Shown here piece by piece: positions 4,280 to 63,869 of a stretch of DNA of 64,000 nucleotides; position 1 is the stretch's first letter; each line of letters begins with the position of its first letter. The stretch lies in the IMG/VR virus record IMGVR_UViG_3300035670_000139. One strand, written 5' to 3'. The translations under genes and the position numbers were made by a program. The notes below the pieces were generated by a model. The model did no database searches, was not told the DNA's origin, and was given only the letters and a program-made list of their open reading frames with translations. Origin of the DNA: a virus. Taxonomy: Duplodnaviria > Heunggongvirae > Uroviricota > Caudoviricetes.

Positions 4280-4295
4280 TTTTTTAAAAAAAATA

Positions 4296-4341: not shown

Positions 4342-4358
4342 AATTATTTAGAAAGATA

Positions 4359-41393: not shown

Positions 41394-43187
41394 ATGTCAA
41401 AATATTATATAGATTATAATAGAAACAAAAATTTTACAACTTTTGGTTTAACAACTTTAAAAGATAGGTATCTAAGTTTGAAATCTAATACATCCAATGA
41501 AAAAGAAGACCCTCAAGAAATGTTTGCAAGAATAGCAAGTGCTTATGCAGATGACATAGAACATGAGGTTAGATTGTATAATTACATGTCTAATTTTTGG
41601 TTTATGCCAGCAACCCCTATTTTAACTAACGCAGGAACCACTAGGGGATTGCCAATATCTTGTTTTTTAAATGAAGTGCAAGATAATATTAATGGCATTG
41701 CAAAAACATACAATGAAAATATTTATTTAGCTTCAAGTGGTGGTGGAATTGGAACTAATTGGAGTAATGTTAGAGGTATTGGGGAGCAAATTGTCAATAA
41801 AGGTAATAGTTCTGGCATTATGCCGTTTTTAAAAGTAGCAGATTCAATGTCTTTAGCTATTAGTCAAGGTGGCATTAGAAGAGGTTCTTCTGCTCAATAT
41901 TTGCATATATCTCACCCTGAAATTGAAGAATTTATTGATGTAAGAAGACCAACTGGGGATAACAATAGAAGGTCTTTAAATATACATCATGGGATTGTAA
42001 TACCTGACGAGTTTATGCAAAAAGTAAAAAATGGTGAAATGTGGCAGTTAAAAAGCCCTAAAACTGGTAAAATTGTAAGCGAGGTGTCGGCACAAGAGTT
42101 GTGGATTAAAATACTTACTGCAAGGGTAGAAACTGGTGAGCCTTACTTATTATTTATTGATAATGTAAATAAATATACACCAGAACATCATAAAAAACTT
42201 GGGTTAAGTGTAAAAACAAGTAATCTTTGTAGTGAAATTACTTTGCCGACTGGTATAGACCATTTAGGTAAAGAAAGAACGGCAGTATGTTGTTTATCTT
42301 CAGTAAATTTAATACATTATAAAGATTGGGAAAATGATATAAACTTTATACCAGACATTATGCGTTTTTTAGATAATGTGTTAGAAGATTTTATTAATAA
42401 AGCACCAAATGAAATAGAAAGGGCAAAATATTCTGCAATGAGAGAACGAAGTGTTGGTTTAGGTGTAATGGGTTTTCATTCTTTTTTACAATCTCAAAAT
42501 GTGCCTTTTGAAGGAGTAATGGCTCAATCTTGGAATAAAAGAATATTTAAGCATTTAAAAACAGAATGTGACAAAATATCTAAAAAATTAGCAATTGAAA
42601 AAGGCTCTTGCCCTGATGCAAAAGATGCTGGTATTATAGAAAGATTTTCTTATAAAATTGCAATTGCCCCAACTGCAAATATTTCAAATATTTGTGGCGA
42701 GGCTAGTCCAGGTATAGAACCTTCAGCAGCAAATGTTTTTACACAAAAAACTCTTAGTGGATCATTTACTATTAAAAATAAATATTTACAAAATTTATTA
42801 CAATCTAAAGGATATAACACGGAAGAAATTTGGTCTAGTATTGCTACACAAGAAGGCTCTGTGCAGCATTTAGACTTTTTAACACCAATAGAAAAAGAGG
42901 TATTTAAAACTGCTTTTGAGTTAAATCAAGAATGGATAATAGAACATGCAGCAGATAGAACACCTTTTGTTTGTCAAGCTCAATCAGTAAATTTATTTTT
43001 ACTATCCGATGTATCTAAAAAAGTATTAAATGCAATACACTTTAATGCTTGGAAAAAAGGCGTTAAAAGTTTATATTATTGTCGCAGTAGGTCAAAACAA
43101 AGGGCAGATAAAGTAAGTCAAAAAATTACAACAAATAATTTGAATATCAATGAAAATAAATACGAAGAATGTTTAGCTTGCCAGTGA
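41394..43187 (+). CDS. Ribonucleotide reductase catalytic (alpha) subunit
   Basis: PATPILTNAGT, LPISCFLNEV, active-site SNLCSEI (N-x-C-x-E) and a C-terminal Cys pair (ECLACQ). 597 aa without an ATP cone. No beta subunit in the window, which is compatible with class II, but the class cannot be called from sequence alone. Confidence 0.85.
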   Translation: MSKYYIDYNRNKNFTTFGLTTLKDRYLSLKSNTSNEKEDPQEMFARIASAYADDIEHEVRLYNYMSNFWFMPATPILTNAGTTRGLPISCFLNEVQDNINGIAKTYNENIYLASSGGGIGTNWSNVRGIGEQIVNKGNSSGIMPFLKVADSMSLAISQGGIRRGSSAQYLHISHPEIEEFIDVRRPTGDNNRRSLNIHHGIVIPDEFMQKVKNGEMWQLKSPKTGKIVSEVSAQELWIKILTARVETGEPYLLFIDNVNKYTPEHHKKLGLSVKTSNLCSEITLPTGIDHLGKERTAVCCLSSVNLIHYKDWENDINFIPDIMRFLDNVLEDFINKAPNEIERAKYSAMRERSVGLGVMGFHSFLQSQNVPFEGVMAQSWNKRIFKHLKTECDKISKKLAIEKGSCPDAKDAGIIERFSYKIAIAPTANISNICGEASPGIEPSAANVFTQKTLSGSFTIKNKYLQNLLQSKGYNTEEIWSSIATQEGSVQHLDFLTPIEKEVFKTAFELNQEWIIEHAADRTPFVCQAQSVNLFLLSDVSKKVLNAIHFNAWKKGVKSLYYCRSRSKQRADKVSQKITTNNLNINENKYEECLACQ

Positions 43188-47211: not shown

Positions 47212-47634
47212 ATGCAAAAACCATCTTATTATGCAAAACTTGCAATAGACCCGCTTGAATATGCTTACAAAAATAAATTAAATCCATACCAATTTAATGC
47301 AATTAAATACATTACTCGCTACAAAGATAAAAATGGTATAGAAGATTTACAAAAAGCAATACATTGCTTAGAAGAGTTTAAAGAAATACTATGTCAAAAC
47401 AATACAAATCCAACAGTTAGTGAAGTTAGTGCAGAAGTTAAGTTTGCAATAGACCCTTTTGAATACGCTTATAAAAATAAACTAAATGAATATGAGGTGA
47501 ATGCTATTGGATATATAACTTACTCTGCTCTGGAAAAAGCAATAACTATTTTACAGAAATACTCCGCTCTAGAAAAAGCAATAACTATTTTACAGAAATT
47601 AATTCAAATTGAAACAGAAAATCAAAAACTATAA
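47212..47634 (+). CDS. DUF3310-like phage protein with internal duplications
   Basis: AIDPLEYAYKNKLNPYQFNAIKYITRYKDKNGIEDLQKAIHCLEEF matches the DUF3310 pattern. The motif repeats (AIDPFEYAYKNKLNEYEVNAIGYIT), and a 39-bp tandem duplicate at 47521-47598 (YSALEKAITILQK x2) follows. Confidence 0.5.
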   Translation: MQKPSYYAKLAIDPLEYAYKNKLNPYQFNAIKYITRYKDKNGIEDLQKAIHCLEEFKEILCQNNTNPTVSEVSAEVKFAIDPFEYAYKNKLNEYEVNAIGYITYSALEKAITILQKYSALEKAITILQKLIQIETENQKL

Positions 47635-47636
47635 CA

Positions 47637-47897
47637 ATGGACACCAAGACGATAAACAATCGATGGAGATATCGTAGACGGATAGCAATCACATCCGCTA
47701 TCTTTTTGTTTTTACTTGAGATTGTTGCTATTGCTAAATTAATATCTTTGCCTTTTGACAAACTTACAATGGAGCATGTGATTTTCTTTGTTATAGCAAC
47801 AATACCACTTCTTGCTATTGTATTAGTTTATTTCATTGCATCAACTTTTGATGATGTTAAGGTGTTTTTGATTGATAGATTAAAACACAAAGATTAA
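47637..47897 (+). CDS. Small membrane protein
   Basis: 86 aa with two TM helices. Confidence 0.4.
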   Translation: MDTKTINNRWRYRRRIAITSAIFLFLLEIVAIAKLISLPFDKLTMEHVIFFVIATIPLLAIVLVYFIASTFDDVKVFLIDRLKHKD

Positions 47898-49000
47898 CTA
47901 TGGGCAGCTTTGTATAACATATCGTAGTGGTCTTCAAAAAAAGCATCCTTACCCATTTTTAAAGCATCCCAAGCTTCAATCCACTCAACACTACTTGCAT
48001 CATCTCCAGCTTTTACTGCATTAATATCATAGTCTTTTGGTAATAATGTAGTATAGAGTGTTGTAATTACTCTACCACGACGACTACGATTTGGGTTGTC
48101 AAAATTGCAGAATAACCGCACATGTAGACGATCAGCTATAACTAACCCAGTCTCTTCTTTTAACTCACGCAAAGCACATTCTTTTAATGTTTCATTTTGA
48201 TTAACAAACCCACCTGGTAAAGCATAAAGTCCTTTGCCAGGTGTTTTACCCCTTTTAATTAATAATACTTTACATTCGTAATTATGGTATTGAAATACTG
48301 CAATATCAGCAGTGTGCTCTATGCGAGGATATTGCTTAACTTCTTCTTGATAGTTTGCATAATAGACATCGTCCTCAGTAATTAAACCTGCCTCAATGTA
48401 TTTTTTTTGCATTTCAAGATAGTCATTCATAGAAAGCCAAAAACAAATGTATTTTTTTTGCATTTCAAGGTAATCATCCATAGAAAACCAAAACCACGAG
48501 TATTGTTTAAAAACTGGCGTATTTGTAAAAAATTCTTTTCTTTTATCTTTTGCACTTATCACTTTACCATTTTCTAAATACGGCTCAACTTCAATCACAT
48601 TATCAAAGATTTTAGCATCTTTAATTAAGTCAATATAATTTGCTGTTTTATCATCTTTTTTGCAAGTAATTAAGTTAATTTGACTATCTTTATTGTTGTT
48701 TTTTATATCTTGTATTGTGTTTTTAATGCAATTTATCCATTCTGCGTCAGTGTCGCAATCTTGAACTGGTAATATTTCTTTTACCTTATTTGTTGGCCAT
48801 AAGCATTTACACAAAATTTTAATGTCTAACTCGTGTTTTCGCTCTTCAAAAGTAAATGGATTGCAAACATCTCTTGATTTATCAGCCGAACCAACTAAGA
48901 TATAAACTTCACTATAATTTTCACAAGCTTTTGCTATTAAAGCTAAATGCCCCTCGTGAACTAATTGAAATCTACCTAAAACGACATTAATAATTTTCAT
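47894..49000 (-). CDS. natV: Bifunctional NMN adenylyltransferase / Nudix hydrolase (NatV-like)
   Basis: N-terminal H-x-G-H nucleotidyltransferase motif (GRFQLVHEGHLAL). C-terminal Nudix box GKGLYALPGGFVNQNETLKECALRELKEETGL. A 17-aa in-frame tandem duplication lies in the linker (48397-48498). Confidence 0.8.
   Translation of the reverse strand: MKIINVVLGRFQLVHEGHLALIAKACENYSEVYILVGSADKSRDVCNPFTFEERKHELDIKILCKCLWPTNKVKEILPVQDCDTDAEWINCIKNTIQDIKNNNKDSQINLITCKKDDKTANYIDLIKDAKIFDNVIEVEPYLENGKVISAKDKRKEFFTNTPVFKQYSWFWFSMDDYLEMQKKYICFWLSMNDYLEMQKKYIEAGLITEDDVYYANYQEEVKQYPRIEHTADIAVFQYHNYECKVLLIKRGKTPGKGLYALPGGFVNQNETLKECALRELKEETGLVIADRLHVRLFCNFDNPNRSRRGRVITTLYTTLLPKDYDINAVKAGDDASSVEWIEAWDALKMGKDAFFEDHYDMLYKAAHS
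48397..48498 (-). repeat. 51-bp x2 in-frame tandem duplication inside natV
   Basis: atgtattttttttgcatttcaag[a/g]ta[g/a]tcat[t/c]catagaaa[g/a]ccaaaa.. repeated, encoding FSMDDYLEMQKKYICFW / LSMNDYLEMQKKYIEAG. Confidence 0.85.
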
Positions 49001-49028: not shown

Positions 49029-50027
49029 CTATTCTAAAATATTTCGCATTGCAACGTTAATTGCATCACTGCGTAATATTTGTTGTAAATATTCCCGTTT
49101 ATCTGATTGTAAATATTCACACATCATTTTATATCCTGCACCTTCTAAACCATAAGTCTTTACTGGTTTAAACAATGAAAAATCATAACCCATATCGTGC
49201 ATTTTTAATATATTTAAAAGATTTTCCGAGTTTTGTTTAAAAATACTTTTCCATAATACTCTATTTGATTGACACAATCTAAATAAATTTTTTTGCAAAT
49301 ATTCGTGTTCTACCCAGTCTTGTGATATTTGCTGTAGGGCATTATTTAATTCAGTATCGTGTTCTTTATTAATTATATCATTTAATGCAAAACAAAATAA
49401 TTGTGGAAAGTGTGAAGTCCAAGCAACAATTTTATCGTGCAGTTTAAGTGTATCACAGGTTGAAGGTTGTATTGTAATTTGTGCATTTTCAACAATATCT
49501 TGCCACATTATAATCATTAAACAATATGGCATATAACAATATAAGCGGTCTATATTATTATATTTTGTAAAAATAACTGTATTCCCCCCTTTATGTAAAT
49601 CTGCTTTACTATTTATAAAACCTGTTTTTTCGCTACCTGCCATAATATGAACGGATGTAAAATTATTATTATCACACCATTTTGATATCCAATTTTTTAC
49701 TGAACTTACATCGCATACATGTAATGCTAAAGTAAATATTTGTAATTCAAACTCAAGATGTATTCTTACATTATCACTTGGAGGTGTTGCAACAATTGCA
49801 ATATCAAATAAATTTTCTTGAAAATCTGCAGGATTGTATTGTTTTGGCTCAATATCAATGCTTCTACAATAATTAATAAAACTTTCCATATTGTCTTCAG
49901 ACATATATGGGTCGTAAATTGTTACATCATAAACACGCTCACCTTCTTGATGTATTTCTGTTAATCTTTTAAAAATAGAGCCTCCAATTAAACCAATTCC
50001 AATAATTAAAACTTTTTGCATAATCAA
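49029..50027 (-). CDS. Prephenate/arogenate dehydrogenase (TyrA)-family NAD(P)-binding protein
   Basis: N-terminal Rossmann motif VLIIGIGLIGGSI. TyrA core motifs HIMAGSEKTG (HPMAGSE.sG) and LHDKIVAWTSHFPQL (HD..vA.vSHLPH). Confidence 0.55.
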   Translation of the reverse strand: MIMQKVLIIGIGLIGGSIFKRLTEIHQEGERVYDVTIYDPYMSEDNMESFINYCRSIDIEPKQYNPADFQENLFDIAIVATPPSDNVRIHLEFELQIFTLALHVCDVSSVKNWISKWCDNNNFTSVHIMAGSEKTGFINSKADLHKGGNTVIFTKYNNIDRLYCYMPYCLMIIMWQDIVENAQITIQPSTCDTLKLHDKIVAWTSHFPQLFCFALNDIINKEHDTELNNALQQISQDWVEHEYLQKNLFRLCQSNRVLWKSIFKQNSENLLNILKMHDMGYDFSLFKPVKTYGLEGAGYKMMCEYLQSDKREYLQQILRSDAINVAMRNILE

Positions 50028-50043: not shown

Positions 50044-51309
50044 TTAAATCAATATTCCGTCTTTTGCAGAGTAGACTAAATCCATTTTAGAAGTGTCAAT
50101 CCTTCCTTTAATAGATTTTTTACCGCTATCGGTAATCGGGTCTTTGTAGACATCTTGCCAAACTTCTTTTCCGTCTATATTCAGACAAATTGCAGATGTT
50201 TTATAAGCAAATTTTAAAGTATCCCTACTGCAATTTTGCATTAAATCACCACCAGAGCCAAAGACAAAATTAGCAGGTGAAAACATTTTATCAGTAAAGT
50301 GTTGTAAAATATTTTCTATTTGCTTTGCGGTAATACCATCTCCCCAAAGAATACGATATTTTTTAAATAATTTGTAACCTTTGTCATTTGTAGTAAATTG
50401 CACTTTATTTTTATCAAAAATTTCTAACATTTTTGTAATAACTTCAATAGGGTTGCCACTGTCAGGTCTAATAACCCAAATCGGATAAGAATTACTTTCA
50501 ATTCTATCTTTCATGGAACCTGATGTTTGAAAATCTGTTGCTTTGTAAATATCATAGCTATCAGATACACAAGCGACAATAGAATAACTTTTAAATGTTT
50601 CTAATAAATTTTCCATTGCTTTAAATTCATTTTCCCTGCCCCAGCTCGTAATAGTTGAATGCTCCGATGCAGGAACGGAAAAGCCAGTTTTTGCATGTAA
50701 GACTGCATTAAAGTTATCAGTCCCTTTAAATTGAGTTAAATGAGCCATGCCACCTATTTTAGCACTTTCAACACTACTTGAACCTCTATCTCCAAAGTTG
50801 TGATAAGCAAAATCAACCCCAGCCACATCCTCGCCAGCTTTTTGATAAAAAGATGTTATCATTTGTTTAATGTAATAACATCTTGTTGCTATTGTAGTCG
50901 GATACCAAAGTTTCAACAAGTAAGTTTCTAAAAAAGAAGGCAACCAAAAATAGTTGTTATCGGTATTTTCTACAACAAGCAAAGGTTGTGAAATGTCGTG
51001 TAATTCATTTTCTTTTACCGCATATATATTGATAGGTAAATGTATATGTCCTTTTTTATTTTGTAAATTCAAACCATCAAAACCTTCTTTGTTATATGGT
51101 AAGCCATGTTGCTCTACAAGTTTTTGCCAATCTATTAGTCCATTTTGATATGTATTTAAACCATATAAATGTTCTTTTAAACCAGTAAAAAACACTTTTT
51201 TGAAGCCTTCGTCTGAGCCTCTGGCGGAAAGATAACAATGTATTTTTTTTGTGTTTTTAGGGTATTGTAAATAATGTGAAAATTTGTAAGAGTCCGTTAA
51301 GTGTAGCAT
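50044..51309 (-). CDS. nadV: Nicotinamide phosphoribosyltransferase (NAMPT/NadV)
   Basis: N-terminal LHLTDSYKFSHYLQYPKNTKKIHCYLSARGS matches NAMPT (NTDSYK.tHy.QYP). 421 aa. Confidence 0.8.
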   Translation of the reverse strand: MLHLTDSYKFSHYLQYPKNTKKIHCYLSARGSDEGFKKVFFTGLKEHLYGLNTYQNGLIDWQKLVEQHGLPYNKEGFDGLNLQNKKGHIHLPINIYAVKENELHDISQPLLVVENTDNNYFWLPSFLETYLLKLWYPTTIATRCYYIKQMITSFYQKAGEDVAGVDFAYHNFGDRGSSSVESAKIGGMAHLTQFKGTDNFNAVLHAKTGFSVPASEHSTITSWGRENEFKAMENLLETFKSYSIVACVSDSYDIYKATDFQTSGSMKDRIESNSYPIWVIRPDSGNPIEVITKMLEIFDKNKVQFTTNDKGYKLFKKYRILWGDGITAKQIENILQHFTDKMFSPANFVFGSGGDLMQNCSRDTLKFAYKTSAICLNIDGKEVWQDVYKDPITDSGKKSIKGRIDTSKMDLVYSAKDGILI

Positions 51310-51326
51310 AATTAAAAATAAAAAAA

Positions 51327-52124
51327 TTACAAAGCATTATTAAAAATATCAAAACAATCAATAACTTGCAACTTCTCGTTATCTTGCGGTTCAAGAATAC
51401 TTGTTGAGTTTGTTGTGATAATTTTGTTGATATTGTTACATATTTTTTGCATTTTATATCCATAAATTTCATTATCATACATTCTATCTATTTTTGATGG
51501 TCGTATTGTTTTAATTAAAAATCTTTTCGGAACAAAACAATGCAACACAAACACATTCACCTCCTCAACTCCGTATTTTTCTTTCAACTCTTTGGCGATT
51601 TGATTTGCTTTTTGAAGCTCGGATTGTGTGCCGTGATGGAGGAAGATTGTAAGTTTTGTAAAATCTTCTATTCCAGTGCAATCCGAAGAAGTGCAAACTA
51701 ATTTATTACAACGATGTTCTATTTTAGGATAAACAAATACACGAGAATAATCTATAGTATTTGTTAATTTGTCCGTGTAATATGTTTCGCAATCCTCACT
51801 ACTCAAAAACAAAACCGCATTATCCTCAGGGATATATTTTGAAAGGTTGGGAGTTATGTCGTCTAAAGTATAAATATTTTCAAACGATGGTAAAAAATCA
51901 ACTGCAGCAACATTTGGAAAGTAAGGTAAATATAGATTACAAAATTCAGTATAAGGATATAATTGTAAAAATGGAGTTATATCTAAAAATGGATTTAGTT
52001 CCCCAACCTTCAAATCAATATACAAATCTTTTGCATTTGTAAAATCAAAAGCCTTAGTGCATTCCTTGTCTTTAAAAAACTCAACTTCTAAAAGCTCATT
52101 GCGTTTGTGGTATATTTTTTGCAT
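51327..52124 (-). CDS. Paralog family A, copy 1 (unknown function; conserved C-terminal ITTNSTSILEPQ..KLQVIDCFDIF module)
   Basis: 265 aa. N-terminus MQKIYHKRNELLEVEF matches copy 2. The final ~97 bp is ~96% identical to a segment in copy 2. Confidence 0.55.
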   Translation of the reverse strand: MQKIYHKRNELLEVEFFKDKECTKAFDFTNAKDLYIDLKVGELNPFLDITPFLQLYPYTEFCNLYLPYFPNVAAVDFLPSFENIYTLDDITPNLSKYIPEDNAVLFLSSEDCETYYTDKLTNTIDYSRVFVYPKIEHRCNKLVCTSSDCTGIEDFTKLTIFLHHGTQSELQKANQIAKELKEKYGVEEVNVFVLHCFVPKRFLIKTIRPSKIDRMYDNEIYGYKMQKICNNINKIITTNSTSILEPQDNEKLQVIDCFDIFNNAL

Positions 52125-52130
52125 ATAATA

Positions 52131-52547
52131 CTATAAATAAGTTTTGATAATTTCATTAATATCATTCTCTGTTATTACTCCACCAGTTTTTACTCTAATT
52201 CTTAAATTTCGCAAAACAGCAGAGTAGTTATATGGTAAAGCAATAAGGCTATTAGCTAAAACTTCACTATATTTTCCACCATATAATTTGTTATCATATT
52301 CCGATTGCCACACTTTTGCTATTTCTCGTAATCCATCCAAGCATCTCTTAATTTCAAACACTTCTGGCAAGTCTTCATCGTTTTCCGTTATAATAGAAAT
52401 CAACTCAGATATTCTATCTAAAAAAGGACACACCACATAAAGTTCATTTTTACTATTTCTAATTTTAAGCGGTGGAACATTTTTCTTTTTTGTCATATAA
52501 TAATTAAGAAATTTCTGTAAAAGTTTCATATAAAGATAACGCCCCAA
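52131..52547 (-). CDS. Paralog family B, copy 1 (unknown function)
   Basis: 138 aa. The N-terminal YMKLLQKFLNYY is shared with the ORF at 53697-54011. Confidence 0.45.
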   Translation of the reverse strand: MGRYLYMKLLQKFLNYYMTKKKNVPPLKIRNSKNELYVVCPFLDRISELISIITENDEDLPEVFEIKRCLDGLREIAKVWQSEYDNKLYGGKYSEVLANSLIALPYNYSAVLRNLRIRVKTGGVITENDINEIIKTYL

Positions 52548-52674
52548 TAAAAAACTGTGCTGCTGTTAAATTGCGAGTTTTTAAAATATTATGATATTTT
52601 TCCGCAACCTTTTTTGTCAAATGCAAAACTAACATTTCCTCACCTTCTTCTAGGTCTATTTTAGTTATATCCAT
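52504..52674 (-). CDS. Possible small ORF between A2 and B1 (internal Met start)
   Basis: Track ORF 52504-52734 starts inside A2 on duplicated DNA. The internal Met (MDITKIDLEEGEEMLVLHL...) gives a 56-aa product. Uncertain. Confidence 0.2.
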   Translation of the reverse strand: MDITKIDLEEGEEMLVLHLTKKVAEKYHNILKTRNLTAAQFFIGALSLYETFTEIS

Positions 52675-52697
52675 ATTATGCCAAACAAAAATAATAA

Positions 52698-52890
52698 AAT
52701 TACAAAGCATCATTAAAAACATCAAAACAATCAATCACCTGCAACCTCTCGGTATTTTTAGGTTTAAGAAGTCCTGTTGAGTTAGTTGTTATGAAAGCAT
52801 CATTAAAAATATCAAAACAATCAATAACTTGCAACTTCTCGTTATCTTGCGGTTCAAGAATACTTGTTGAGTTTGTTGTTATGATTTTGT
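52698..52890 (-). repeat. ~96-bp tandem duplication of the A-family 3' coding end (third copy at 51326-51428)
   Basis: 52794-52890 is ~96% identical to 51326-51428, and 52698-52795 is a more diverged copy. Together they encode IITTNSTSILEPQDNEKLQVIDCFDIFNDA / FITTNSTGLLKPKNTERLQVIDCFDVFNDAL. Confidence 0.85.
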
Positions 52891-53662
52891 CAAAAGGCAA
52901 TTTTGATATATACTCTTTTTGTCTTTTTGTAAAATCTTCTTTAAAACTTTTTTCACTACCTACAATGATACCAATATCAATACAAAATTTGTATGCCTCA
53001 TCTGCTGACTTAGAATACATTTCGTTAGCAAAAGACATATAACTTTGTTCCAAATCACTTTCTTCTAAAAAACAGTGTAATCTAAACAAATTTACTTCTT
53101 TAACTCCGTATTTTTCTTTCAACTCTTTGGCAACTTCATTTGCTTTTTGAAGTTCAGCTTGTGTGCCATGATGGAGGAAGATGGTTACTTTATTAATAGG
53201 ATTTTTTACAAACTCATTAATAGCATCAATACTTCCTTTAAGTGTTACTTCATCAAGCCCATCATTAGCATAAAGTCCAATATAATGACCTTGAAAACAT
53301 TGCATATATCTTTCACAGTTCTCACCACTCAAAAACAAAACTGCATTATCCTCAGGGATGTATTTTGATAAATTAAATTTATATCCAGTCTCGTCACATT
53401 GTATATCATTTAAAGTTATTAAAAGAATTTTTGAATTAAAGTTATCTTTATATCCTAAATACCAACATGGAGTGTATATTACTGCACTTAAATCTAAAGC
53501 AAAAAGTTTATTACTTAAAGCTATAGCTGGAGTGCAATCCCCATCCTTCAACTCAATATACAAATCTTTTACATCCGTAAAATCAAAAGGGATTTTGCAG
53601 TCTTTATCTTGGTAAAACTCAACTTCTAAAAGCTCGTTGCGTTTGTGGTATATTTTTTGCAT
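52700..53662 (-). CDS. Paralog family A, copy 2 (320 aa; C-terminal module duplicated in tandem)
   Basis: Shares the N-terminus, the PEDNAVLFLS[SG]E[DN]CE motif, TIFLHHGTQ[SA]ELQKAN[QE][IV]AKELKEKYGV and the C-terminal module with copy 1. Confidence 0.55.
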   Translation of the reverse strand: MQKIYHKRNELLEVEFYQDKDCKIPFDFTDVKDLYIELKDGDCTPAIALSNKLFALDLSAVIYTPCWYLGYKDNFNSKILLITLNDIQCDETGYKFNLSKYIPEDNAVLFLSGENCERYMQCFQGHYIGLYANDGLDEVTLKGSIDAINEFVKNPINKVTIFLHHGTQAELQKANEVAKELKEKYGVKEVNLFRLHCFLEESDLEQSYMSFANEMYSKSADEAYKFCIDIGIIVGSEKSFKEDFTKRQKEYISKLPFDKIITTNSTSILEPQDNEKLQVIDCFDIFNDAFITTNSTGLLKPKNTERLQVIDCFDVFNDAL

Positions 53663-53696
53663 ATAATAATTAAGAATTTAGTATTTTTAATATTTT

Positions 53697-54011
53697 TCAA
53701 GAAGTATAGTAGTAATCATAACAGTAACTACCATAATAGTCACTACTTTTATTTTCAATATCAAACAATGGTAATTTTTTTTGTTTCATAAATTTATTTG
53801 CTTTTTGTATTGTTTTAATATCTGTTTTTAATGGTCTAAACATGTGTAATGTATTACTATCATCATCGCATATTGTAGCCCAAGGCGATACTTGTTTTGC
53901 GTGAATATGTAATCTATATGGTGGTTTATTATATTTATGGTATGTTGGTTTCTTGTAATAATTAAGAATTTTTTGTAAAAGTTTCATATAAAAATAATAA
54001 AAACTAACCAA
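53697..54011 (-). CDS. Paralog family B, copy 2 (104 aa, diverged)
   Basis: Shares the N-terminal YMKLLQKILNYY with B1. Confidence 0.4.
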   Translation of the reverse strand: MVSFYYFYMKLLQKILNYYKKPTYHKYNKPPYRLHIHAKQVSPWATICDDDSNTLHMFRPLKTDIKTIQKANKFMKQKKLPLFDIENKSSDYYGSYCYDYYYTS

Positions 54012-54576
54012 TTAATTTACTTATATTTTCCCAAACTTGTGAAGTTTGCTCGTGAAGTGGTTTTACGATGTCAAAATACCAATATATCATTTCTTCATCT
54101 TCATCTCCATCTTCTTGTTCTAAATATTTAATTATTTCTATACAAATACAATGATTGTCCAAGCGTTTTTTTTCGGGTAATATACATGTGTTTTTAACTG
54201 CAATATCTATATCTTGTATTGTAATTTTATTATCATTTTTAAGGTTTGATAACAAAAGTAAAATATCTTCAAGAGTTATTGGTCTGCCAAGAATTTCAAA
54301 ATTATATTCATATTGCCAATCGTAAGGTTCGTTTTGGTCTTGATATGTAAAATCAGTACATCTATAATAGTCTTTTCTTGAGGGCGTATGCCTTGTAAGT
54401 GTATTGTCAGCAATATTAAGACCATATATATTTGCTTTGGCATTATAAAACAAACAACCATCTTGATGAGCCTCCATCTTTAAAGCCTCCTCCAAAGATT
54501 TTACCTCAGGATGTCTATTCATCATAACCTTTTCCCATATTTTTTTGTAATGCGGGTTTTCTAGTGCTTTTTGCAT
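54004..54576 (-). CDS. Hypothetical protein, first gene of the minus-strand operon
   Basis: 190-aa ORF with an acidic C-terminal stretch (EQEDGDEDEE). Confidence 0.45.
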   Translation of the reverse strand: MQKALENPHYKKIWEKVMMNRHPEVKSLEEALKMEAHQDGCLFYNAKANIYGLNIADNTLTRHTPSRKDYYRCTDFTYQDQNEPYDWQYEYNFEILGRPITLEDILLLLSNLKNDNKITIQDIDIAVKNTCILPEKKRLDNHCICIEIIKYLEQEDGDEDEEMIYWYFDIVKPLHEQTSQVWENISKLIG

Positions 54577-54593
54577 ATAATCAAAATTACAAA

Positions 54594-54693
54594 TGGCGTC
54601 CGTTCTTTGACTTCATTGTTTTATTACCAGTAAAACAGTTAAAGGTTGTGATTACACAAGAAGAACGGACATAGAACTTTAACTTTTACTGGT
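54594..54693 (-). promoter_or_regulatory. Structured 5' leader (10-bp stem GTCCGTTCTT/AAGAACGGAC enclosing 53 nt; alternative 10-bp pairing ACCAGTAAAA/TTTTACTGGT)
   Basis: Stem halves at 54598-54607 and 54661-54670. The alternative pairing is 54626-54635 with 54684-54693, which cannot form at the same time as the first stem. It lies between the predicted transcription start and the ATG at 54576. Confidence 0.35.
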
Positions 54694-54699
54694 GATTAA

Positions 54700-54728
54700 A
54701 TTGTAAAGGGTTGTATTTCAAAAGTCAA
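54700..54728 (-). promoter_or_regulatory. Sigma70-like promoter (minus strand): TTGACT, 17-nt spacer, TACAAT
   Basis: The reverse complement of 54723-54728 is TTGACT; the reverse complement of 54700-54705 is TACAAT. The upstream sequence AAATAATCTTTTT is shared with the minus-strand promoter at 55548-55576. Confidence 0.5.
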
Positions 54729-54828
54729 GTAAAAAGATTATTTTTTTTGTTAAAATGGTTGATTAGTCAAATCCATTGCTGTCTCAGTCCAAATTTTAAA
54801 GCTTTCCAAAGCTTGGTGAAATAACATA

Positions 54829-56319: not shown

Positions 56320-56871
56320 ATGCAAAATAAAATAAATCAAAACAATGTTCGATTAAACACAACTCAGCCAAAGGTATTGCCTTCTAAACCAGATTTAAAA
56401 ACAAAAGCAATAGAAAAAGCATTTAATTTTCTTAAGCAACCTAATATTGAGGGCATTAAGTTAAAATCATATCAATGTCCCGCAGGCGTATGGACTATTG
56501 GAATTGGAACAACTGTTATTAATGGTAAGCCAGTCACAAGCAATTTAACTATAACATTAAAAGAAGCGGAGGAGTATTGTAAAAAAGATATTGAAAAATG
56601 TTTAAATTCAATCTGGTCTGATGTATGGTCTTATAATGCTAATCAAATTGCAGCTATAATATCTTTTGTGTATAACTTTGGATATGGTGCTTGGCAAAGT
56701 TCAACTTTAAGAAAGATTATTGTAGCAAATCCAAATAATTTTGACGCTATAGCAAATCAATTTAGAAGGTGGATTTATGTAGCGGATCCAAATACAAAAC
56801 AAAAAAAGGAATCAAATGGTTTAATAAATCGTAGAAAATTGGAGATTCAATTATATTGTAGCAATATTTAA
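56320..56871 (+). CDS. Endolysin, GH24 (T4/lambda-type) lysozyme family
   Basis: IEGIKLKSYQCPAGVWTIGIGTT matches the T4-lysozyme core ([21 protein letters not shown]), with the catalytic Glu in IEG. Confidence 0.7.
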   Translation: MQNKINQNNVRLNTTQPKVLPSKPDLKTKAIEKAFNFLKQPNIEGIKLKSYQCPAGVWTIGIGTTVINGKPVTSNLTITLKEAEEYCKKDIEKCLNSIWSDVWSYNANQIAAIISFVYNFGYGAWQSSTLRKIIVANPNNFDAIANQFRRWIYVADPNTKQKKESNGLINRRKLEIQLYCSNI

Positions 56872-56940: not shown

Positions 56941-57819
56941 ATGTTTTCAAAAGCTACATTAAAAAAAATTGTCTCCGCAGCTTTAAATGAGAATGATGCA
57001 ATTTTTTTTCTTGATAACAACACTTGCAAAAAATACAAAAAATATTTTACAAAGCATAAAGTATATTCTATTGAAAACACTAAAGAAATTAAAGAGATTA
57101 GCAAAGGTAATGGAACCGCAATAATCTTTATAGAGTCTTATAACGATACATCTATTTTACAAGCAAACAAAGTAGCAAAAATCTTTAAAGATAGCGAAAA
57201 ATATGCTAAAGTATGTGTTTTAGCTTTAGAATGTGGCGAGGTAAAACCAGTGCCTTTATATGTAATTTTATATTTTGATGTATTAATTACAACAAATTCC
57301 ACAGGGGTTTTACAACCTCAAAAGATAGAAGATTTAATTGTTATAGATGTAAGTCAAGAAATTCAACAAGACAATAAAAACAAGCAAAGATTGCAAAAAT
57401 ATCGTGATAAATTTTTTGATTTCTTGGGGTATCCTCTGTCAGCAATGGCACATTCCTTTATATTTTTAGTAATAATCAGTAATTTACACGATTATGGAAT
57501 AATCAAAACATATAATACTTCTAATGTTTTAACAGTAATGGCATTAAGCGGATGCTTGCTTTGGATTTTAACTCAATTATCATTTGTTATATCTAATTAT
57601 GTTATTAAAGCTTACAATTCAACGACACAAACTATTGAACCAAGTAAAATGACCGCTACTTCAAAAATCGGACAAGTTATAGAAAAAATATTATCTTTCG
57701 TAGCTTTTATCATTATTTTTCCAATTATATCTACTATAGATTTAATAATAACAAGTGTTGGTATTATTGACAAACTTTGTCTAAAAGTTAAAAGTTTGTT
57801 TAGCATTAAGAAAACATAA
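56941..57819 (+). CDS. Membrane protein whose N-terminal domain is homologous to the A-family C-terminal module
   Basis: TAIIFIESYNDTSILQANKVAKIFKD...VLITTNSTGVLQPQKIEDLIVIDV parallels TIFLHHGTQAELQKANEVAKELKE...IITTNSTSILEPQDNEKLQVIDCFD. The C-terminal half has 3-4 TM helices. Confidence 0.5.
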   Translation: MFSKATLKKIVSAALNENDAIFFLDNNTCKKYKKYFTKHKVYSIENTKEIKEISKGNGTAIIFIESYNDTSILQANKVAKIFKDSEKYAKVCVLALECGEVKPVPLYVILYFDVLITTNSTGVLQPQKIEDLIVIDVSQEIQQDNKNKQRLQKYRDKFFDFLGYPLSAMAHSFIFLVIISNLHDYGIIKTYNTSNVLTVMALSGCLLWILTQLSFVISNYVIKAYNSTTQTIEPSKMTATSKIGQVIEKILSFVAFIIIFPIISTIDLIITSVGIIDKLCLKVKSLFSIKKT

Positions 57820-62050: not shown

Positions 62051-62644
62051 ATGGAATTAGTAACAATATCAAAAGCAAAAAAACTACTTGGAGTAACACC
62101 TCAAACAATGCGTAATTGGGATAAAAATGGCAAGATAAAGCCAGTTAAAAGAGCTAAAAATGGTTTTCGCTATTATAATCTATTAGATATACAAAATTTA
62201 GTAAAGCCAAAAAATAAAATGATTATAGGCTATTGTCGTGTATCTTCTAAAAAACAAGAAGATGATTTATGCAGACAAATTGAAAATGTAAAAACATTTA
62301 TGATAGCTAAAGGATATAGTTTTGAAATAATACAGGATATAGGCTCTGGAATTAACTATACTAAAAATGGCTTAAATGAATTAATCACTAAAGTTATTAA
62401 TGGTAATGTTGAGAAAGTTGTTATATTATATAAAGACAGATTGCTGCGTTTTGGATTTGAATTATTAGAAAGCATATTTCAAAAATATAATTGTAAAATT
62501 GAAATTATTGATAATACAGAAAAAACAGAGGAACAAGAATTAGTTGAGGATTTAATACAAATTGTGACAGTTTTTTCTTGTAAATTACAAGGCAAAAGAA
62601 GCAAAAAAACAAAAGCATTAATTAACGAGTTAAAAAATGATTAA
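62051..62644 (+). CDS. tnpA: IS607-type serine recombinase transposase (MerR-like HTH plus resolvase catalytic domain)
   Basis: N-terminal MerR-type HTH (AKKLLGVTPQTMRNWDKNGKIKP..NGFRYY), then catalytic IIGYCRVSSKKQEDDL (Y-x-R-V-S-x-x-x-Q). 197 aa. Confidence 0.8.
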   Translation: MELVTISKAKKLLGVTPQTMRNWDKNGKIKPVKRAKNGFRYYNLLDIQNLVKPKNKMIIGYCRVSSKKQEDDLCRQIENVKTFMIAKGYSFEIIQDIGSGINYTKNGLNELITKVINGNVEKVVILYKDRLLRFGFELLESIFQKYNCKIEIIDNTEKTEEQELVEDLIQIVTVFSCKLQGKRSKKTKALINELKND

Positions 62645-63869
62645 ATCCTTCAAAGTTCGTCTTGAACCAAACAATAAACAAAAATCTTTGTTGTTTGCAA
62701 ATGCAAGTGTTGCAAGATTTGCATACAATTGGACTTTAGAACAACAGCAACTCAATTACAAGAATGGTGGTAAGTTTATTAGTCATTTTGATTTACGCAA
62801 AAAATTAACCCAATTAAAACAAAAAGAACTAAGCTGGCTATACAACTATGATGTTGATATTGTAAAACAAGCAGTAAAAGATGCTTGCGATAGTTATATT
62901 AAATTCTTTAATAAAGGCTTTGGATTTCCAAGATTTAAAAGTAAAAGATTTTCAAAACCTAGTTTTTTTGTTGATAATTATAAAATCAAAATCTTTGAAA
63001 ATAGCATTAAAATTCCAAAACTTAAGTCAAACATAAAATTAAGTGAAAATGGATATATCCCATTGAATGTAAAATATTCTAACCCAAGAATTACTTTTGA
63101 TGGAGTAAATTGGTTTTTATCTGTTGGAGTTGATATTGAAAATGAAATACAAGAACTCACAAATGAAACACTTGGAATTGATGTAGGTTTAAAAGATGCT
63201 TTAATTAGAAGTGATGGAATTATACATAAAAATATCAATAAAACTAAAAAAATTAAAACATTAAGAAAAAAACATAATAAACTTAAAAAATCAATTAGTA
63301 GAAAATATGAAAGAAACAAAATTGGTAAAAAATTTATCAAAACTCAAAATATTAAAAAAGCTGAGTTAAAATCAAATAAACTTTACAAAAAGTTAAACGA
63401 TATACAAACTGACTATTTCAACAAAGTAGCCATTTCAATTGCGAGAACCAAGCCAAAAAAGATTGTTATGGAAAAGTTGAATATTGATGGGATGCGAAAG
63501 AATAAATGTCTTTCAAAAGCCTTTCAAGAAGCTAGTTTGCATAAATTCAAAACTAAAATTCAAAATAAATGTTTGGAGTTTGGGATTGAATTTATTGAGG
63601 CTGGAACATTTTTTCCATCCTCAAAAAGATGTAGTCATTGTGGAGCAATTAAAAAAGACTTGAAATTAAAAGATAGAGTTTTTAAATGCGATACATGCGA
63701 CTTTCAAATAGACAGGGACGAAAACGCAAGTCAAAATCTCAAACAATACCCTGAGTTACAGGGGAATTTAAGCCTTTGGAGTGCTAAATCAAAAGAAAGT
63801 AGTCGCAAGACAAAATCTGGCACCGAGAAGAAGGAAAAAAGCAAAAAACTTAATAGAGTAGCAATATGA
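62637..63869 (+). CDS. tnpB: TnpB (OMEGA RNA-guided nuclease)
   Basis: RuvC-I GIDVGLKDALIRSDG, zinc finger CSHCGAIKK...CDTCDFQ, and RuvC-III DRDENASQNL. 410 aa. Start overlaps tnpA by 8 nt. Confidence 0.85.
   Translation: MIKSFKVRLEPNNKQKSLLFANASVARFAYNWTLEQQQLNYKNGGKFISHFDLRKKLTQLKQKELSWLYNYDVDIVKQAVKDACDSYIKFFNKGFGFPRFKSKRFSKPSFFVDNYKIKIFENSIKIPKLKSNIKLSENGYIPLNVKYSNPRITFDGVNWFLSVGVDIENEIQELTNETLGIDVGLKDALIRSDGIIHKNINKTKKIKTLRKKHNKLKKSISRKYERNKIGKKFIKTQNIKKAELKSNKLYKKLNDIQTDYFNKVAISIARTKPKKIVMEKLNIDGMRKNKCLSKAFQEASLHKFKTKIQNKCLEFGIEFIEAGTFFPSSKRCSHCGAIKKDLKLKDRVFKCDTCDFQIDRDENASQNLKQYPELQGNLSLWSAKSKESSRKTKSGTEKKEKSKKLNRVAI

Follow-up and report, generated by a model that had tools for sequence, protein, structure and literature searches.

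Two alleles of a gene family with a predicted PRPP-synthetase-like fold in the recombining head of a phage nadV/natV operon

Introduction

Adps, the ADP-ribose pyrophosphokinase of the phage NARP1 system, is a PRPS-like protein that is recognised by PRPP synthetase (Prs) profiles, has a TTNSL-like C-terminal motif and keeps the seven residues common to PRPS and Adps (Arg87, His121, Asp161, Lys185, Asp212, Asp213, and Asp216; PMC13586617). Its gene lies immediately upstream of a Nampt-family gene, annotated with ~560–600 aa in the phage records compared. PAP39/PRPSAP1 (PDB 2c4k) is a close sequence relative of Prs. NARP2, as in KVP40, is described as two genes that encode the Nampt NadV and the NMNAT-Nudix protein NatV, and it consumes PRPP at a cost thought to be high (bioRxiv 10.1101/2024.02.11.579819). 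In T4-type phages, promoter and stem-loop cassettes called PeSLs are short conserved gene-end sequences that bound insertions, deletions, and replacements between near-identical phages (PMC2839356, PMC4122927).

Here we describe a previously unannotated gene, A, that lies just upstream of the NAD+-salvage genes of a Caudoviricetes virus (the window is the whole stretch analysed, 64,000 nt) and appears to have undergone repeated breakage and re-joining at short conserved sequences. The downstream nadV and natV have the domain make-up of NARP2, but a TyrA-like gene lies between them, genes with a predicted Prs fold lie upstream, and in several relatives the sequenced portion of the operon includes natV but not nadV. 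Like Adps, A is predicted to be a phage-specific Prs-fold protein with a TTNS-type C-terminal motif, and the copy A1 lies immediately upstream of a Nampt-family gene. Unlike Adps, A is neither recognised by Prs profiles nor keeps the seven residues, the partner of A1 is a NARP2-like 421-aa Nampt accompanied by an NMNAT-Nudix gene, and most A genes have no Nampt neighbour. Nor is A a close sequence relative of Prs, as PAP39 is. The changes at this locus lie within a hyperplastic region, as in PeSL-type shuffling, but here a T-rich intercistronic spacer together with conserved coding blocks provides the joints in place of promoter and stem-loop cassettes, and exchange also takes place inside one gene, A.

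Results

Gene order of the operon

All ORFs that the earlier note placed in the operon were found in the ORF list on the minus strand and in the order it claimed. The region would form the variable head of one phage operon, running from a promoter-like site and leader through ORF190, B2, A2, a small ORF, B1, A1, nadV, and the TyrA-like gene to natV. The features, with one relative of A located elsewhere, are:

54577–54828, minus strand: operon head, intergenic, with a sigma-70-like site and a structured leader
54728–54700, minus strand: sigma-70-like site, TTGACT-17-TACAAT
54577–54705, minus strand: structured leader, from RNA folding
54004–54576, minus strand: ORF190, conserved partner of the A family, fold unassigned
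53697–54011, minus strand: ORF of B2, likely ATG at 53987 (53697–53987), 96 aa from the ATG, leader MKLLQKILNYY
52700–53662, minus strand: A2, 320 aa, predicted PRPP-synthetase-like fold, variable segments b-b-b, two tandem C-terminal modules
52504–52734, minus strand: small ORF, likely ATG at 52674 (52504–52674), 56 aa, begins MDITKIDLEEGEE
52131–52547, minus strand: ORF of B1, likely ATG at 52529 (52131–52529), 132 aa, leader MKLLQKFLNYY
51327–52124, minus strand: A1, 265 aa, predicted PRPP-synthetase-like fold, variable segments a-a-a
50044–51309, minus strand: nadV, nicotinamide phosphoribosyltransferase, 421 aa
49029 to 50021/50027, minus strand: TyrA-like gene, prephenate dehydrogenase family
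47894–49000, minus strand: natV, bifunctional NMN adenylyltransferase and Nudix
56941–57819, plus strand: A3, C-terminal half of the A fold and a hydrophobic tail

The sigma-70-like site scores 10/12 matches in a promoter scan in which such sites showed no enrichment over shuffled sequence. For the leader, folding gave z = -2.67 and Rfam no match. The operon-head region is 90–97% conserved in the related contigs L002, L003, and L090, where the first gene after it differs. Further downstream, a 6-nt gap separates the end of B1 from the start of A1. NadV matches the Pfam families NAPRTase (5.6e-45) and NAMPT_N (2.3e-12) as well as phrog_448 (2e-105), and is ~44% identical to phage Nampt proteins of ~410 aa. 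The TyrA-like gene, whose alleles are 50–83% identical among relatives, matches Pfam PDH_N and PDH_C, with an NCBIfam prephenate dehydrogenase match below the cut-off; natV matches Pfam CTP_transf_like and NUDIX and phrog_395.

Judged by sequence, B1 and B2 are unrelated apart from their 11-aa leader, beyond which hhalign found nothing in common. The earlier note had remarked on shared DNA around the B starts, and a repeat search indeed aligned 52493–52539 with 53951–53997 (89% over 47 nt). B2 has no family match in Pfam, PHROG, NCBIfam, or PADLOC searches and its homologues are confined to close relatives; B1 likewise has no family match in the profile searches. In eight relatives B1 is 96–100% identical and always directly upstream of an A2-type gene, and every B1-containing relative (10/10) has an A gene after B1. 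The exact 56-aa protein of the small ORF is present in public collections. At the DNA level the small ORF is 97% identical in L090, and its first 13 codons are the N-terminus of a B2-like gene in L003 and L018.

Repeats and mosaic structure of A1 and A2

The conserved pieces of the two A genes are:

51331–51427, minus strand: module m1 of A1, downstream copy of the 97-nt direct repeat
52794–52890, minus strand: module m1 of A2, upstream copy of the 97-nt direct repeat, encoding the last strand and helix, ITTNSTSILEPQDNEKLQVIDCFDIFNDA
52700–52793, minus strand: module m2 of A2, second in-frame head-to-tail copy with a period of 90 nt, and stop codon
51534–51661, minus strand: conserved linker block in A1, encoding TIFLHHGTQSELQKAN..AKELKEKYGV..VN.F.LHCF; A2 counterpart 53069–53196
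51977–52130, minus strand: conserved 5' block of A1, the first ~49 codons and 6 nt upstream; A2 counterpart 53515–53668

The near-identity of the two gene ends, pointed out previously, was recovered by the repeat search (51331–51427 versus 52794–52890, 97% identity), as was a second, more diverged copy at the end of A2 (52704–52800, 78% identical to 51331–51427 over 97 nt). TRF described the 3' end of A2 as a 90-nt tandem of 2.0 copies (85%) at 52704–52884. Repeats of such length and identity far exceed chance within an 8.5-kb stretch. The best match to m2 elsewhere reaches only 85%. The m1 module of A2 matches the A 3' end at 99–100% identity in 8/10 of the relatives covering it and at 95% in L003/L004. 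Elsewhere in the same genome, TRF also reported in-frame tandem duplications of 39 nt and 51 nt.

Along their DNA, A1 and A2 alternate between blocks of 80–88% identity, among them the 5' block (82%) and the linker block (83%), and stretches that cannot be aligned, before reaching 97–100% at the end. Among the residues encoded by the linker block are T166, which is invariant, and the conserved histidines H164 and H195. A1 and A2 are related, as the earlier note stated, but their protein identity is 52–59% over aligned columns rather than about 40%. The A gene would be built from four conserved blocks with three replaceable segments between them; the segment types combine as a-a-a in A1, b-b-b in A2, a-b-b in P0002, b-c-c in P0003, d-b-a in P0006, and e-b-c in P0005; on this sequence pattern the segments appear to have been replaced rather than to have diverged. 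P0003 shares 75% identity with A2, and P0005 and P0006 share 63% with A1, against 57% between A1 and A2; the two are not sister sequences and would be diverged alleles of one family. The exact 320-aa A2 occurs on only two JGI contigs, as does A1, and the two-copy arrangement is likewise recorded on no more than two. Shorter A2 variants, one of 290 aa with a single module and one of 315 aa, are found on a larger number of contigs.

The locus in related contigs

Twelve related contigs, with mostly 95–100% identity in the flanking genes, were compared. Each has one full-length A gene in the operon, but gene order, A allele, and 3' tail differ among them, and the view of a mosaic, recombining locus at the head of the nadV/natV operon stood up in this comparison, with breakpoints at the conserved pieces noted before. 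The order is B2-B1-A in L002, L018, and L091, ORF190-small ORF-B1-A in L090, B1-A2-nadV in L094 and L095, and ORF190-B2'-A-TyrA in L003/L004. Breakpoints in the relatives compared fall in conserved blocks inside A and at gene boundaries with a T-rich spacer, two of which are:

52675–52699, minus strand: T-rich spacer between A2 and the small ORF, intercistronic, TTTTATTATTTTTGTTTGGCATAAT
51310–51326, minus strand: T-rich spacer between A1 and nadV, TTTTTTTATTTTTAATT

The first is nearly identical to the spacer after ORF190 in L090, L003, and L018, and its T-rich motif also follows ORF190, A1, nadV, and the TyrA-like gene in the window. An identical stop codon and T-rich spacer thus mark five gene junctions of the operon, and the m1 module and spacer are conserved regardless of the next gene.

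Contig L066 matches the window with its positions 1–494 (53287–52794, 99.6%) and 398–2028 (51427–49788, 95%) and consequently lacks, as do L094 and L095, exactly the 1,463 bp between the 97-nt repeats. All three link the A2 body to nadV via a single module copy; that of L066 has an A2-type 5' end and an A1-type 3' end, the A1-type marker being a single nucleotide. The 1,463-bp difference may be an insertion or a deletion. In L094 the gene upstream of A2 is B1 and not B2, so its difference from the window took more than one event.

Predicted fold and linkage of the A family

Proteins of the A family are predicted to have a two-domain PRPP synthetase fold in which the catalytic residues are replaced. 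This assignment is based on one moderately confident AlphaFold model (pLDDT 76.5), in which the three variable segments are poorly modelled. Foldseek gave a sole match with E < 1e-3, B. subtilis Prs 1dkr (4.9e-5, TM 0.50). A has no match in Pfam or PDB sequences, and the family none in PADLOC, Pfam, NCBIfam, or PHROG, and hhalign gave weak sequence-level support for homology with Prs, placing A 175–242 on Prs 231–276 in the expected register (7-sequence Prs/Adps profile; P 1.7e-4, prob 50%). Compared with Prs (PDB 4twb, 1u9y, 1dkr), the strand-loop-helix, a T-H-x-x-F-like motif (LHCF), and the C-terminal TTNS follow in the same order and register. In contrast, the first strand-helix of the Prs N-domain has no counterpart in A, which also does not conserve the DD pair, the full PP loop, the RQDR arginines, or the catalytic-loop lysine. 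Where Prs has the DD pair, A has x-H (2/73 sequences have D at position 164), the PP loop is ~5 residues shorter, column 251 is the only Arg-rich column, and across the 73 sequences residues 112–157, where the catalytic hairpin lysine is expected, show no conservation.

The model suggests that a conserved but differently built pocket is kept at the PRPP-synthetase site, with three conserved histidines in or near the cleft. T166 is present in 73/73 sequences, G165 in 63, H164 in 58, H195 in 65, and H6 in 69; the TTNST motif is kept in 65–73 of 73, and position 110 is acidic in 59/73. The conserved pocket residues map at or just past predicted strand ends of the C-terminal half.

The family is found almost only in phage and metagenome DNA, with one match in 185,579 cellular species genomes. 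Across it, A travels with ORF190-like genes (within 3 kb at 10/14 unique loci) in nucleotide-metabolism modules, other neighbours being ThyX, dUTPase, thymidylate kinase, HAD phosphatase, and DnaN-like genes. The shared operon with NAD+ salvage, emphasised in the earlier note, is real in this genome but does not extend to the family: nadV adjoins A at 1/14 unique loci, and the linkage is specific to this lineage. In L003, L091, and L092, the sequenced portion of the operon includes A but not nadV.

Discussion

Our preferred reading, to which we give a probability of about 0.6, is a variable operon head in which alleles of a Prs-fold gene are exchanged by block recombination and serve in nucleotide/PRPP metabolism. 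The conserved A blocks and T-rich spacers would act as short homologies for recombination between related phage genomes. The two-copy state would have arisen at such homologies when recombination brought two alleles, each preceded by a small gene of its own, into series, leaving a junction with a head-to-tail doubling of the last 90-nt module; the resulting 97-nt direct repeat would be able to delete the intervening 1,463 bp again. The earlier note had instead proposed that a B-A unit was duplicated in place and diverged, its last 97 nt being homogenised by gene conversion. The tandem arrangement, the conserved A 5' blocks, the common B leader, and the 97% identity of the end against ~57% elsewhere speak for this, as do tandem A-A pairs in the unrelated lineage L036/L038 and the further in-frame tandem duplications of this genome. 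We nevertheless consider it improbable: B1 and B2 have only 11 residues in common and lie in series upstream of a single A in L002, L018, and L091, while A1 and A2 are each closer to proteins of other contigs than to one another, their variable segments are swapped rather than diverged, and 12/12 related contigs have one full-length operon A. That A1 and A2 are not sisters makes juxtaposed alleles likelier than duplication in situ with recent conversion. An assembly chimera of co-occurring strains, joined via the near-identical 97-nt or B1 sequences, is very improbable. The source is metagenomic, many near-identical strain variants exist, only two JGI contigs are recorded for the 320-aa A2 and likewise for A1, and the junction was not found in an IMG/VR search; but the in-frame head-to-tail m1-m2 joint has no k-mer in common with the usual module-flanking sequence and so cannot be created by repeat collapse, and m2 and the A1 body are unique, being absent from all relatives compared. 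Moreover, the small ORF and B1 come after m2, and since B1 precedes an A gene in 10/10 relatives, a second A downstream of A2 is expected even if the allele was mis-joined.

As to function, A would bind or convert a phosphorylated ribose or nucleotide-type ligand by a chemistry unlike that of PRPP synthetase and would work with ORF190 in phage nucleotide/PRPP metabolism, a role that in this lineage would place it beside PRPP-consuming NAD+-salvage enzymes. KVP40 NatV releases ribose 5-phosphate from ADP-ribose through its Nudix domain, and by analogy the natV product here could supply this precursor. A might be a working pyrophosphokinase, either a divergent PRPP synthetase feeding NadV or an Adps-like maker of ADPR-PP, and the operon a self-sufficient NAD+ reconstitution pathway. 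The predicted Prs fold, the position of A1 17 nt upstream of nadV, in the order known for Adps and its Nampt-like partner in phages, and the PRPP demand of NARP2, thought costly (bioRxiv 10.1101/2024.02.11.579819), fit this idea, as would the possible ribose 5-phosphate supply by natV; the poor conservation in A of the seven PRPS/Adps residues, the altered DD pair, PP loop, hairpin, and arginine positions, and the scarcity of nadV beside A (1/14 loci, and none in the sequenced operon portions of L003, L091, and L092) make it doubtful. Slightly less doubtful, although still unlikely, is a counter-defence or host-takeover role in which A, perhaps together with B and ORF190, would be a decoy, sponge, or inhibitor on a Prs scaffold, binding for example host Prs or an ADP-ribose-derived signal, and an arms race would have shaped its variable segments. 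The three variable segments between the conserved blocks cannot be aligned, recombine freely, and can be read as sitting where elements close the Prs active site. This would suit such a protein, as would the extreme allele diversity among phages otherwise mostly 95–100% identical, the near-absence from cellular genomes, and the adjoining NARP2-type genes. However, no known defence or anti-defence family was matched (PADLOC), the usual neighbours are ordinary nucleotide-metabolism genes, elsewhere without nadV, and the small pocket is strictly conserved, which points to a metabolite ligand.

A3, which the earlier note had singled out for alignment with A1 and A2, is indeed related to A, but only to its C-terminal half. 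The A-fold part of A3 (residues ~1–140) is followed by the hydrophobic tail, and its gene adjoins a lysozyme gene. It matches A loci by blastp and is 88% conserved in L003.

Operon layout, repeats and regulation

The locus consists of nine minus-strand genes in the same orientation, with junctions that range from a 26-nt overlap to a 34-nt gap:

54004-54576, minus strand, ORF190 (from the ORF list)
ATG at 53987, minus strand, B2, 96 aa
52700-53662, minus strand, A2, 320 aa
ATG at 52674, minus strand, small ORF, 56 aa
ATG at 52529, minus strand, B1, 132 aa
51327-52124, minus strand, A1, 265 aa
50044-51309, minus strand, nadV, with NAPRTase and NAMPT_N domains
49029-50021, minus strand, TyrA-like gene (from the ORF list)
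47894-49000, minus strand, natV, with CTP_transf_like and NUDIX domains

The ORF list, a repeat search, TRF and a sliding comparison of the two cassettes agree with the ORFs, repeats and patchwork described in the earlier note. The last 97-nt module of A (m1) is 97% identical between A1 (51331-51427) and A2 (52794-52890) and its A1 copy is 78% identical to 52704-52800, the second tandem copy in A2 (m2); by TRF the 3' end of A2 is a 90-nt unit in 2.0 copies. The A cassettes consist of 80-88% identical blocks interleaved with unalignable stretches, with 97-100% identity at the end. The alignment of B1 with B2 is limited to their starts, where the repeat search found a 47-nt leader repeat of 89% identity.

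The 252-nt intergenic region upstream of ORF190 contains a sigma-70-like site and a structured leader. This candidate leader RNA (54577-54705, minus strand; MFE -25.9 kcal/mol, z -2.67) is 90-97% conserved in three related contigs (L002, L003, and L090) despite their differing first gene, and neither the leader nor the rest of the locus matched Rfam. A promoter/terminator scan found no terminator-like site on the minus strand between 47700 and 55700, and promoter-like sites were not enriched (53 observed versus 48 expected). With an upstream sigma-70-like site and leader and no internal minus-strand terminator-like site, co-transcription of the gene string is plausible. No foreign island was seen in the base composition. 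The YMKLLQK leader of the B genes was considered as a non-coding promoter and rejected, because gene callers and relatives start the B genes at its ATG and because, when swapped, it forms a coding N-terminus.

Gene order and joints in close relatives

Twelve contigs share flanking genes with the window, mostly at 95-100% identity. The locus had been proposed to be duplicated and fast evolving; the relatives show strong mosaicism and changes of gene order, but each has one full-length A gene, and none of the twelve carries a second in the operon.

Gene orders in related contigs (B2' is a B2-like variant)
L003 and L004: ORF224, AroE-like, ORF190, B2', A, TyrA, NatV
L091: ORF224, ORF190-like, B2, B1, A, TyrA, NatV
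L002: leader, 80-aa ORF, B2, B1, A2
L018: ORF190, B2', B1, A2, TyrA
L090: 135-aa ORF, ORF190, small ORF, B1, A2
L092 and L093: B1, A, TyrA, NatV
L094 and L095: B1, A2 (290 aa), NadV, TyrA, NatV
L066: A2, NadV, TyrA

B1 and B2, which had been taken for a duplicated pair, are present in series in relatives and are therefore different genes rather than paralogues; hhalign finds the 11-residue leader alone in common. Breakpoints among the relatives fall at start and stop codons. ORF190, A2, A1, nadV, and the TyrA-like gene each end in a stop codon with a T-rich spacer behind it (TTTTTATTATTTTT or TTTTTTATTTTTATTTTT); the same joint follows ORF190 in L090, L003, and L018, and m1 with its T-rich spacer is conserved whether nadV or TyrA comes next. 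In L003 and L018, the N-terminus of a B2-like gene consists of the small ORF's first 13 codons.

Indels and replacements among these close relatives are delimited by short conserved gene-boundary motifs and resemble the modular exchange mediated by PeSL, the shuffling motif described in T4-type phages (PMC2839356, PMC4122927). A PeSL motif combines a promoter with a stem-loop terminator, whereas the joints here are T-rich spacers of 16-28 nt without stems, and exchange here works inside a gene too.

The TyrA-like gene is as mosaic as A, since its alleles (window 49029-50021, L066, L094, L018, and L003) share only 50-83% protein identity on contigs with 99.8% identical NadV. In L003 a shikimate dehydrogenase (AroE-like) gene at 5877-6806 lies between ORF224 and ORF190, so that two aromatic-pathway-type dehydrogenases, AroE-like and TyrA-like, occur in one variable region.

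Mosaicism inside the A gene

An alignment of eight A alleles revealed four conserved blocks (residues 1-42, 93-107, 159-196, and 234-265) separated by three variable segments (about 43-92, 108-158, and 197-232). Each segment exists in about two or three mutually unalignable types, which are freely combined.

Types of variable segments I-II-III in A alleles
A1: a-a-a
A2: b-b-b, with the extra m2
P0002 (L091): a-b-b, with an extra 25-aa tail
P0003 (L003): b-c-c
P0006: d-b-a
P0005: e-b-c

A neighbour-joining tree of the conserved columns placed A2 with P0003 (75%) and A1 with P0005, P0050, and P0063. The highest identities of A1 are to P0005 and P0006 (63%), against 57% to A2.

Probable origin of the two-copy state

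The nadV-carrying relatives are missing precisely the 1,463 bp that separate the repeats, comprising m2, the small ORF, B1, and the body of A1. This follows from two matches of L066, 1-494 to window 53287-52794 (99.6%) and 398-2028 to window 51427-49788 (95%), which overlap in the 97-nt module. The alignments show, at the sequence level, a presence/absence polymorphism bounded by the 97-nt repeat. The single module of these relatives combines A2-type 5' variants (ATCATAACA) with an A1-type 3' variant (AATAATGC); such a hybrid is the expected product of a crossover between the two repeats, the 3' marker being one base. More than one event is involved in the difference between two copies and one, because L094 differs further upstream.

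Collinearity of the window with L090 starts at 52699 in the window and just past the ORF190 stop codon in L090. Together with the 1,463-bp difference and the hybrid module, this collinearity is most simply described by an ORF190-B2-A unit, as in L003, having been joined to a small ORF-B1-A-nadV unit; the join would lie at the module and spacer and would have left the in-frame head-to-tail module pair. In 315-aa variants of A2, a different short tail follows m1, which with the module pair makes the 3' end of A a recurrent joint.

Caution is warranted as to whether the two-copy arrangement is an assembly chimera. Just two records of it exist (an exact-sequence look-up found the 320-aa A2 and A1 in two JGI contigs each, and the 290-aa form of A2 in at least five contigs from four sources), and the m1-m2 junction was not found in IMG/VR. 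Against a misjoin, this junction has no k-mer in common with the sequences that normally flank a module, and neither m2 nor the A1 body occurs elsewhere. In addition, the small ORF and B1 come after m2, and all ten relatives that contain B1 have an A gene after it.

Two A-family genes also occur directly adjacent in an unrelated lineage (L036 2585-4160, and the same in L038) and at 4201-4809 and 9998-10693 of L007, another unrelated lineage; the two-copy state is thus not unique to the window phage. Elsewhere in the window, natV contains an in-frame 51-nt tandem duplication (48395-48493, minus strand; 1.9 copies, 91%) that encodes FWFSMDDYLEMQKKYI/CFWLSMNDYLEMQKKYI in the NMNAT-Nudix interdomain linker and is single-copy in L003 and in L092, which stands for the L091-L093 group. 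A 39-nt tandem duplication (47521-47599; 2.0 copies, 95%) lies inside a plus-strand ORF at 47212-47634. Together, the 39-nt, 51-nt, and 90-nt cases suggest a genome that generates in-frame tandem duplications or tolerates them.

Distribution and predicted fold of the A family

A1 and A2 had no match in Pfam, NCBIfam, PHROG, or PADLOC, and an A-family profile found nothing among PDB sequences. Searches of GenBank phages with the 10.6-kb region (megablast) and with A1 (tblastn) gave no match either. A collection of 5.8 billion proteins yielded 223 relatives of A2, mostly of about 250 aa, unnamed and metagenomic, and a profile search of 1.84 billion representatives yielded 167 clusters, apparently only A-family members or fragments, with no evident bridge to true PRPP synthetase (Prs). 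A scan of 185,579 species, one genome each, gave a single match. In view of the few clusters and this one match, the A family is almost confined to phage and metagenome DNA; related A loci are largely JGI metagenome contigs. The sole species-genome match (L102, JAJTDS010000071.1) lies on a 7.5-kb contig of a 'Rickettsiales bacterium' MAG; the contig may be a binned phage fragment, perhaps pointing weakly to a host among AT-rich alphaproteobacteria.

An AlphaFold model of A1 built from 73 sequences (pLDDT 76.5, pTM 0.77) was of low confidence at residues 57-59, 139-147, and 202-220, all within the variable segments. Foldseek ranked Bacillus subtilis Prs first (E 4.9e-5, probability 1.0, TM 0.50), and Methanocaldococcus jannaschii Prs, third by E-value, had the next-highest probability (0.96). 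A is thus predicted to adopt the two-domain Prs fold of tandem type I phosphoribosyltransferase-like domains. We also compared A with a profile made from Escherichia coli Prs and six phage genes, representing Prs and Adps, the PRPS-like ADP-ribose pyrophosphokinase of NARP1. Local hhalign gave a weak match of A 175-242 to Prs 231-276 (P 1.7e-4), which pairs AKELKEKYGV..LHCF..KIITTNST with AEALKERGAK..THPIFS..EVVVCDTIP in the register that the fold predicts. Global mode gave no useful result, and E. coli Prs alone gave no significant match with the A family.

Loss of Prs motifs and a putative conserved pocket

PRPS and Adps have in common Arg87, His121, Asp161, Asp212, Asp213, Asp216, and the hairpin Lys185 (PMC13586617). 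Counted over the 73-sequence alignment, this set is not conserved in A; the sole possible counterpart is position 110, acidic (E or D) in 59 of 73 sequences, for Asp161. Nor is A recognised by the Prs sequence profiles (Pfam Pribosyltran_N and Pribosyl_synth, NCBIfam). The ribose-5-phosphate/PP loop DDxxDTGGT that follows the central strand of the C-domain in Prs is missing; at its site A has TIFL-x-H-G-T-Q-S-E, with x-H instead of DD at the strand end (163 is variable, and 164 is D in 2/73). The loop is about five residues shorter than in Prs, with just G-T ahead of the helix, and any echo of the PP loop is limited to T166 (73/73) and G165 (63/73).

The RQDR arginines that the ATP/regulatory loop carries after the PYFGYA strand are likewise missing, P67 being kept and followed by variable segment I; the only Arg-rich column of the family is 251. 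For the catalytic flexible-loop lysine (Lys197 in B. subtilis Prs, Lys185 in Adps) there is no conserved column within A 112-157, which falls in variable segment II with its unalignable types. By motif order TLxDI (T86 L87 D89 I90) occupies the TVDLH site, in a stretch outside every significant alignment, and A has no conserved His in this stretch at the DLH site (active-site His130/His121). The alignment shows these Prs motifs as apparently lost at the family level. From the order of fold elements, we infer that the variable segments sit at the regulatory loop, the catalytic hairpin, and the region after the THG strand of Prs/Adps.

Other residues of A are conserved: H6 (69/73), K7, and E10 in the N-terminal hairpin, the acid at 110, H164-G165-T166 (T166 invariant), H195, and TTNST at 237-241. 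In the model, conserved residues map at or just past the predicted strand ends of the C-terminal half, the site of ligand binding in proteins of this class of folds. This placement suggests that A holds a conserved small-molecule pocket with non-Prs chemistry.

Neighbours of A across the family

We fetched about 100 A loci and clustered their ORFs. The commonest neighbours were ORF190-like genes (22 loci, usually adjacent), ThyX (18), and TyrA-like genes (15), followed by an unknown 195-aa family (13, adjacent) and DnaN-like clamps (10); HAD phosphatase, thymidylate kinase, and dUTPase genes were also found. In the 14 unique loci whose flanks each span at least 3 kb, ORF190-like genes lay within 3 kb of A in 10 and nadV in one, the window itself. 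From these counts, A is part of a nucleotide-metabolism module with ORF190 as its steady companion, and its linkage to NAD+ salvage is peculiar to this lineage.

B1, B2, ORF190, the small ORF, and A3 (an A relative at 56941-57819) gave nothing above noise in Pfam, PHROGs, NCBIfam, or PADLOC. ORF190 had no family match, its model (pLDDT 73.8) had no structural neighbour, and remote homology was absent among ORF190, B1, B2, and the families FAM6, FAM30, FAM38, FAM23, and FAM55. TyrA-like genes recur a few kb from A in the distant loci L023, L057, L064, and L068.

Relation to known systems and possible function

Among known proteins, Prs, the NARP1 enzyme Adps of phages, and PAP39, which is non-catalytic, come closest to A; A is predicted to have the same fold and falls outside Prs/Adps in both sequence and catalytic residues. 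As with Adps, a gene of predicted Prs fold lies directly upstream of a Nampt gene: the A1 stop codon is 17 nt before nadV, and A2-type genes in L066, L094, and L095 are placed in the same way, but family-wide this adjacency occurs in only 1 of 14 unique loci. The Adps partner in NARP1 is Namat, which uses ADPR-PP; the partner in the window is NadV (421 aa), closest (about 44%) to phage proteins of about 410 aa annotated Nampt and co-encoded with an NMNAT-Nudix gene as in NARP2. The likeness to NARP2 concerns the downstream genes only, Nampt (50044-51309) and NMN adenylyltransferase (47894-49000) in one phage.

A would bind or convert a phosphorylated ribose or nucleotide ligand, acting with ORF190, and its replaceable segments may tune specificity or partner binding; in this lineage it would do so beside PRPP-consuming enzymes (NadV). 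Use of PRPP is noted to make NARP2 costly (10.1101/2024.02.11.579819). A role of A as a true kinase that supplies NadV is disfavoured, as the Prs/Adps residues are missing from A and the nadV linkage is missing elsewhere in the family. A decoy or inhibitor in an arms race would be compatible with the sequences, which have fitting hypervariable segments. The most far-reaching interpretation, to which we assign a probability of only about 15%, is that A represents a new PRPP-synthetase-derived phage class without pyrophosphokinase chemistry, which captures host Prs or binds an ADP-ribose/PRPP-type metabolite and so secures PRPP and NAD+ or blunts NAD+-based immunity. The three recombining segments would then be arms-race specificity determinants, and two tandem alleles would broaden the host or defence range.

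Adps is a repurposed PRPP synthetase and one of the two founding enzymes of phage NAD+ reconstitution, a current topic. A would be a second and far more divergent offshoot of the Prs fold, found almost only in phages and metagenomes, to which profile-based surveys are blind and which in one lineage stands directly ahead of a Nampt/NMNAT-Nudix pair. An A that acts on PRPP or ADP-ribose would bear on how NARP2-type phages cover their PRPP use; as a binder, A would represent a new type of protein for metabolic takeover or counter-defence. Whatever A does, the locus is a clean natural case of exchange with defined joints at three levels, namely between genes, inside one gene, and at a 90-nt module, and is useful for studying how phage accessory regions diversify.

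Further A-related ORFs and the rest of the genome

A3 (56941-57819, plus strand) has only the C-terminal half of the A fold, ITTNSTGVLQP included, and a tail of about 150 aa with, by eye, about three hydrophobic helices. It directly follows a lysozyme gene (56320-56871) amid putative membrane proteins and is 88% conserved in L003. P0004 (459 aa) has three stretches that match the A profile and may have arisen by fusion or internal duplication of an A. In L087 (9980-10099), L088 (1745-1864), and L089 (9986-10108), ORFs of about 40 aa resemble A over its first 24-27 residues only, with 74-80% identity, and may be A-gene remnants or a free-standing conserved 5' block. P0359, on a 187-kb contig, is a 409-aa member of the cluster of the 56-aa small ORF.

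Four genes elsewhere in the window confirm that the phage is tailed and has a nucleotide metabolism of its own:

20541-21911, baseplate J
26049-30398, tail-fibre-repeat protein
38261-39793, DNA methylase
41394-43187, ribonucleotide reductase large subunit

A tRNA gene lies at 35726-35798 on the minus strand (Rfam, 73.7 bits), and a RAGATH-18 RNA match at 63773-63836 on the plus strand (63.9 bits against a gathering score of 44.9) falls inside or at the end of an ORF at 62637-63869.
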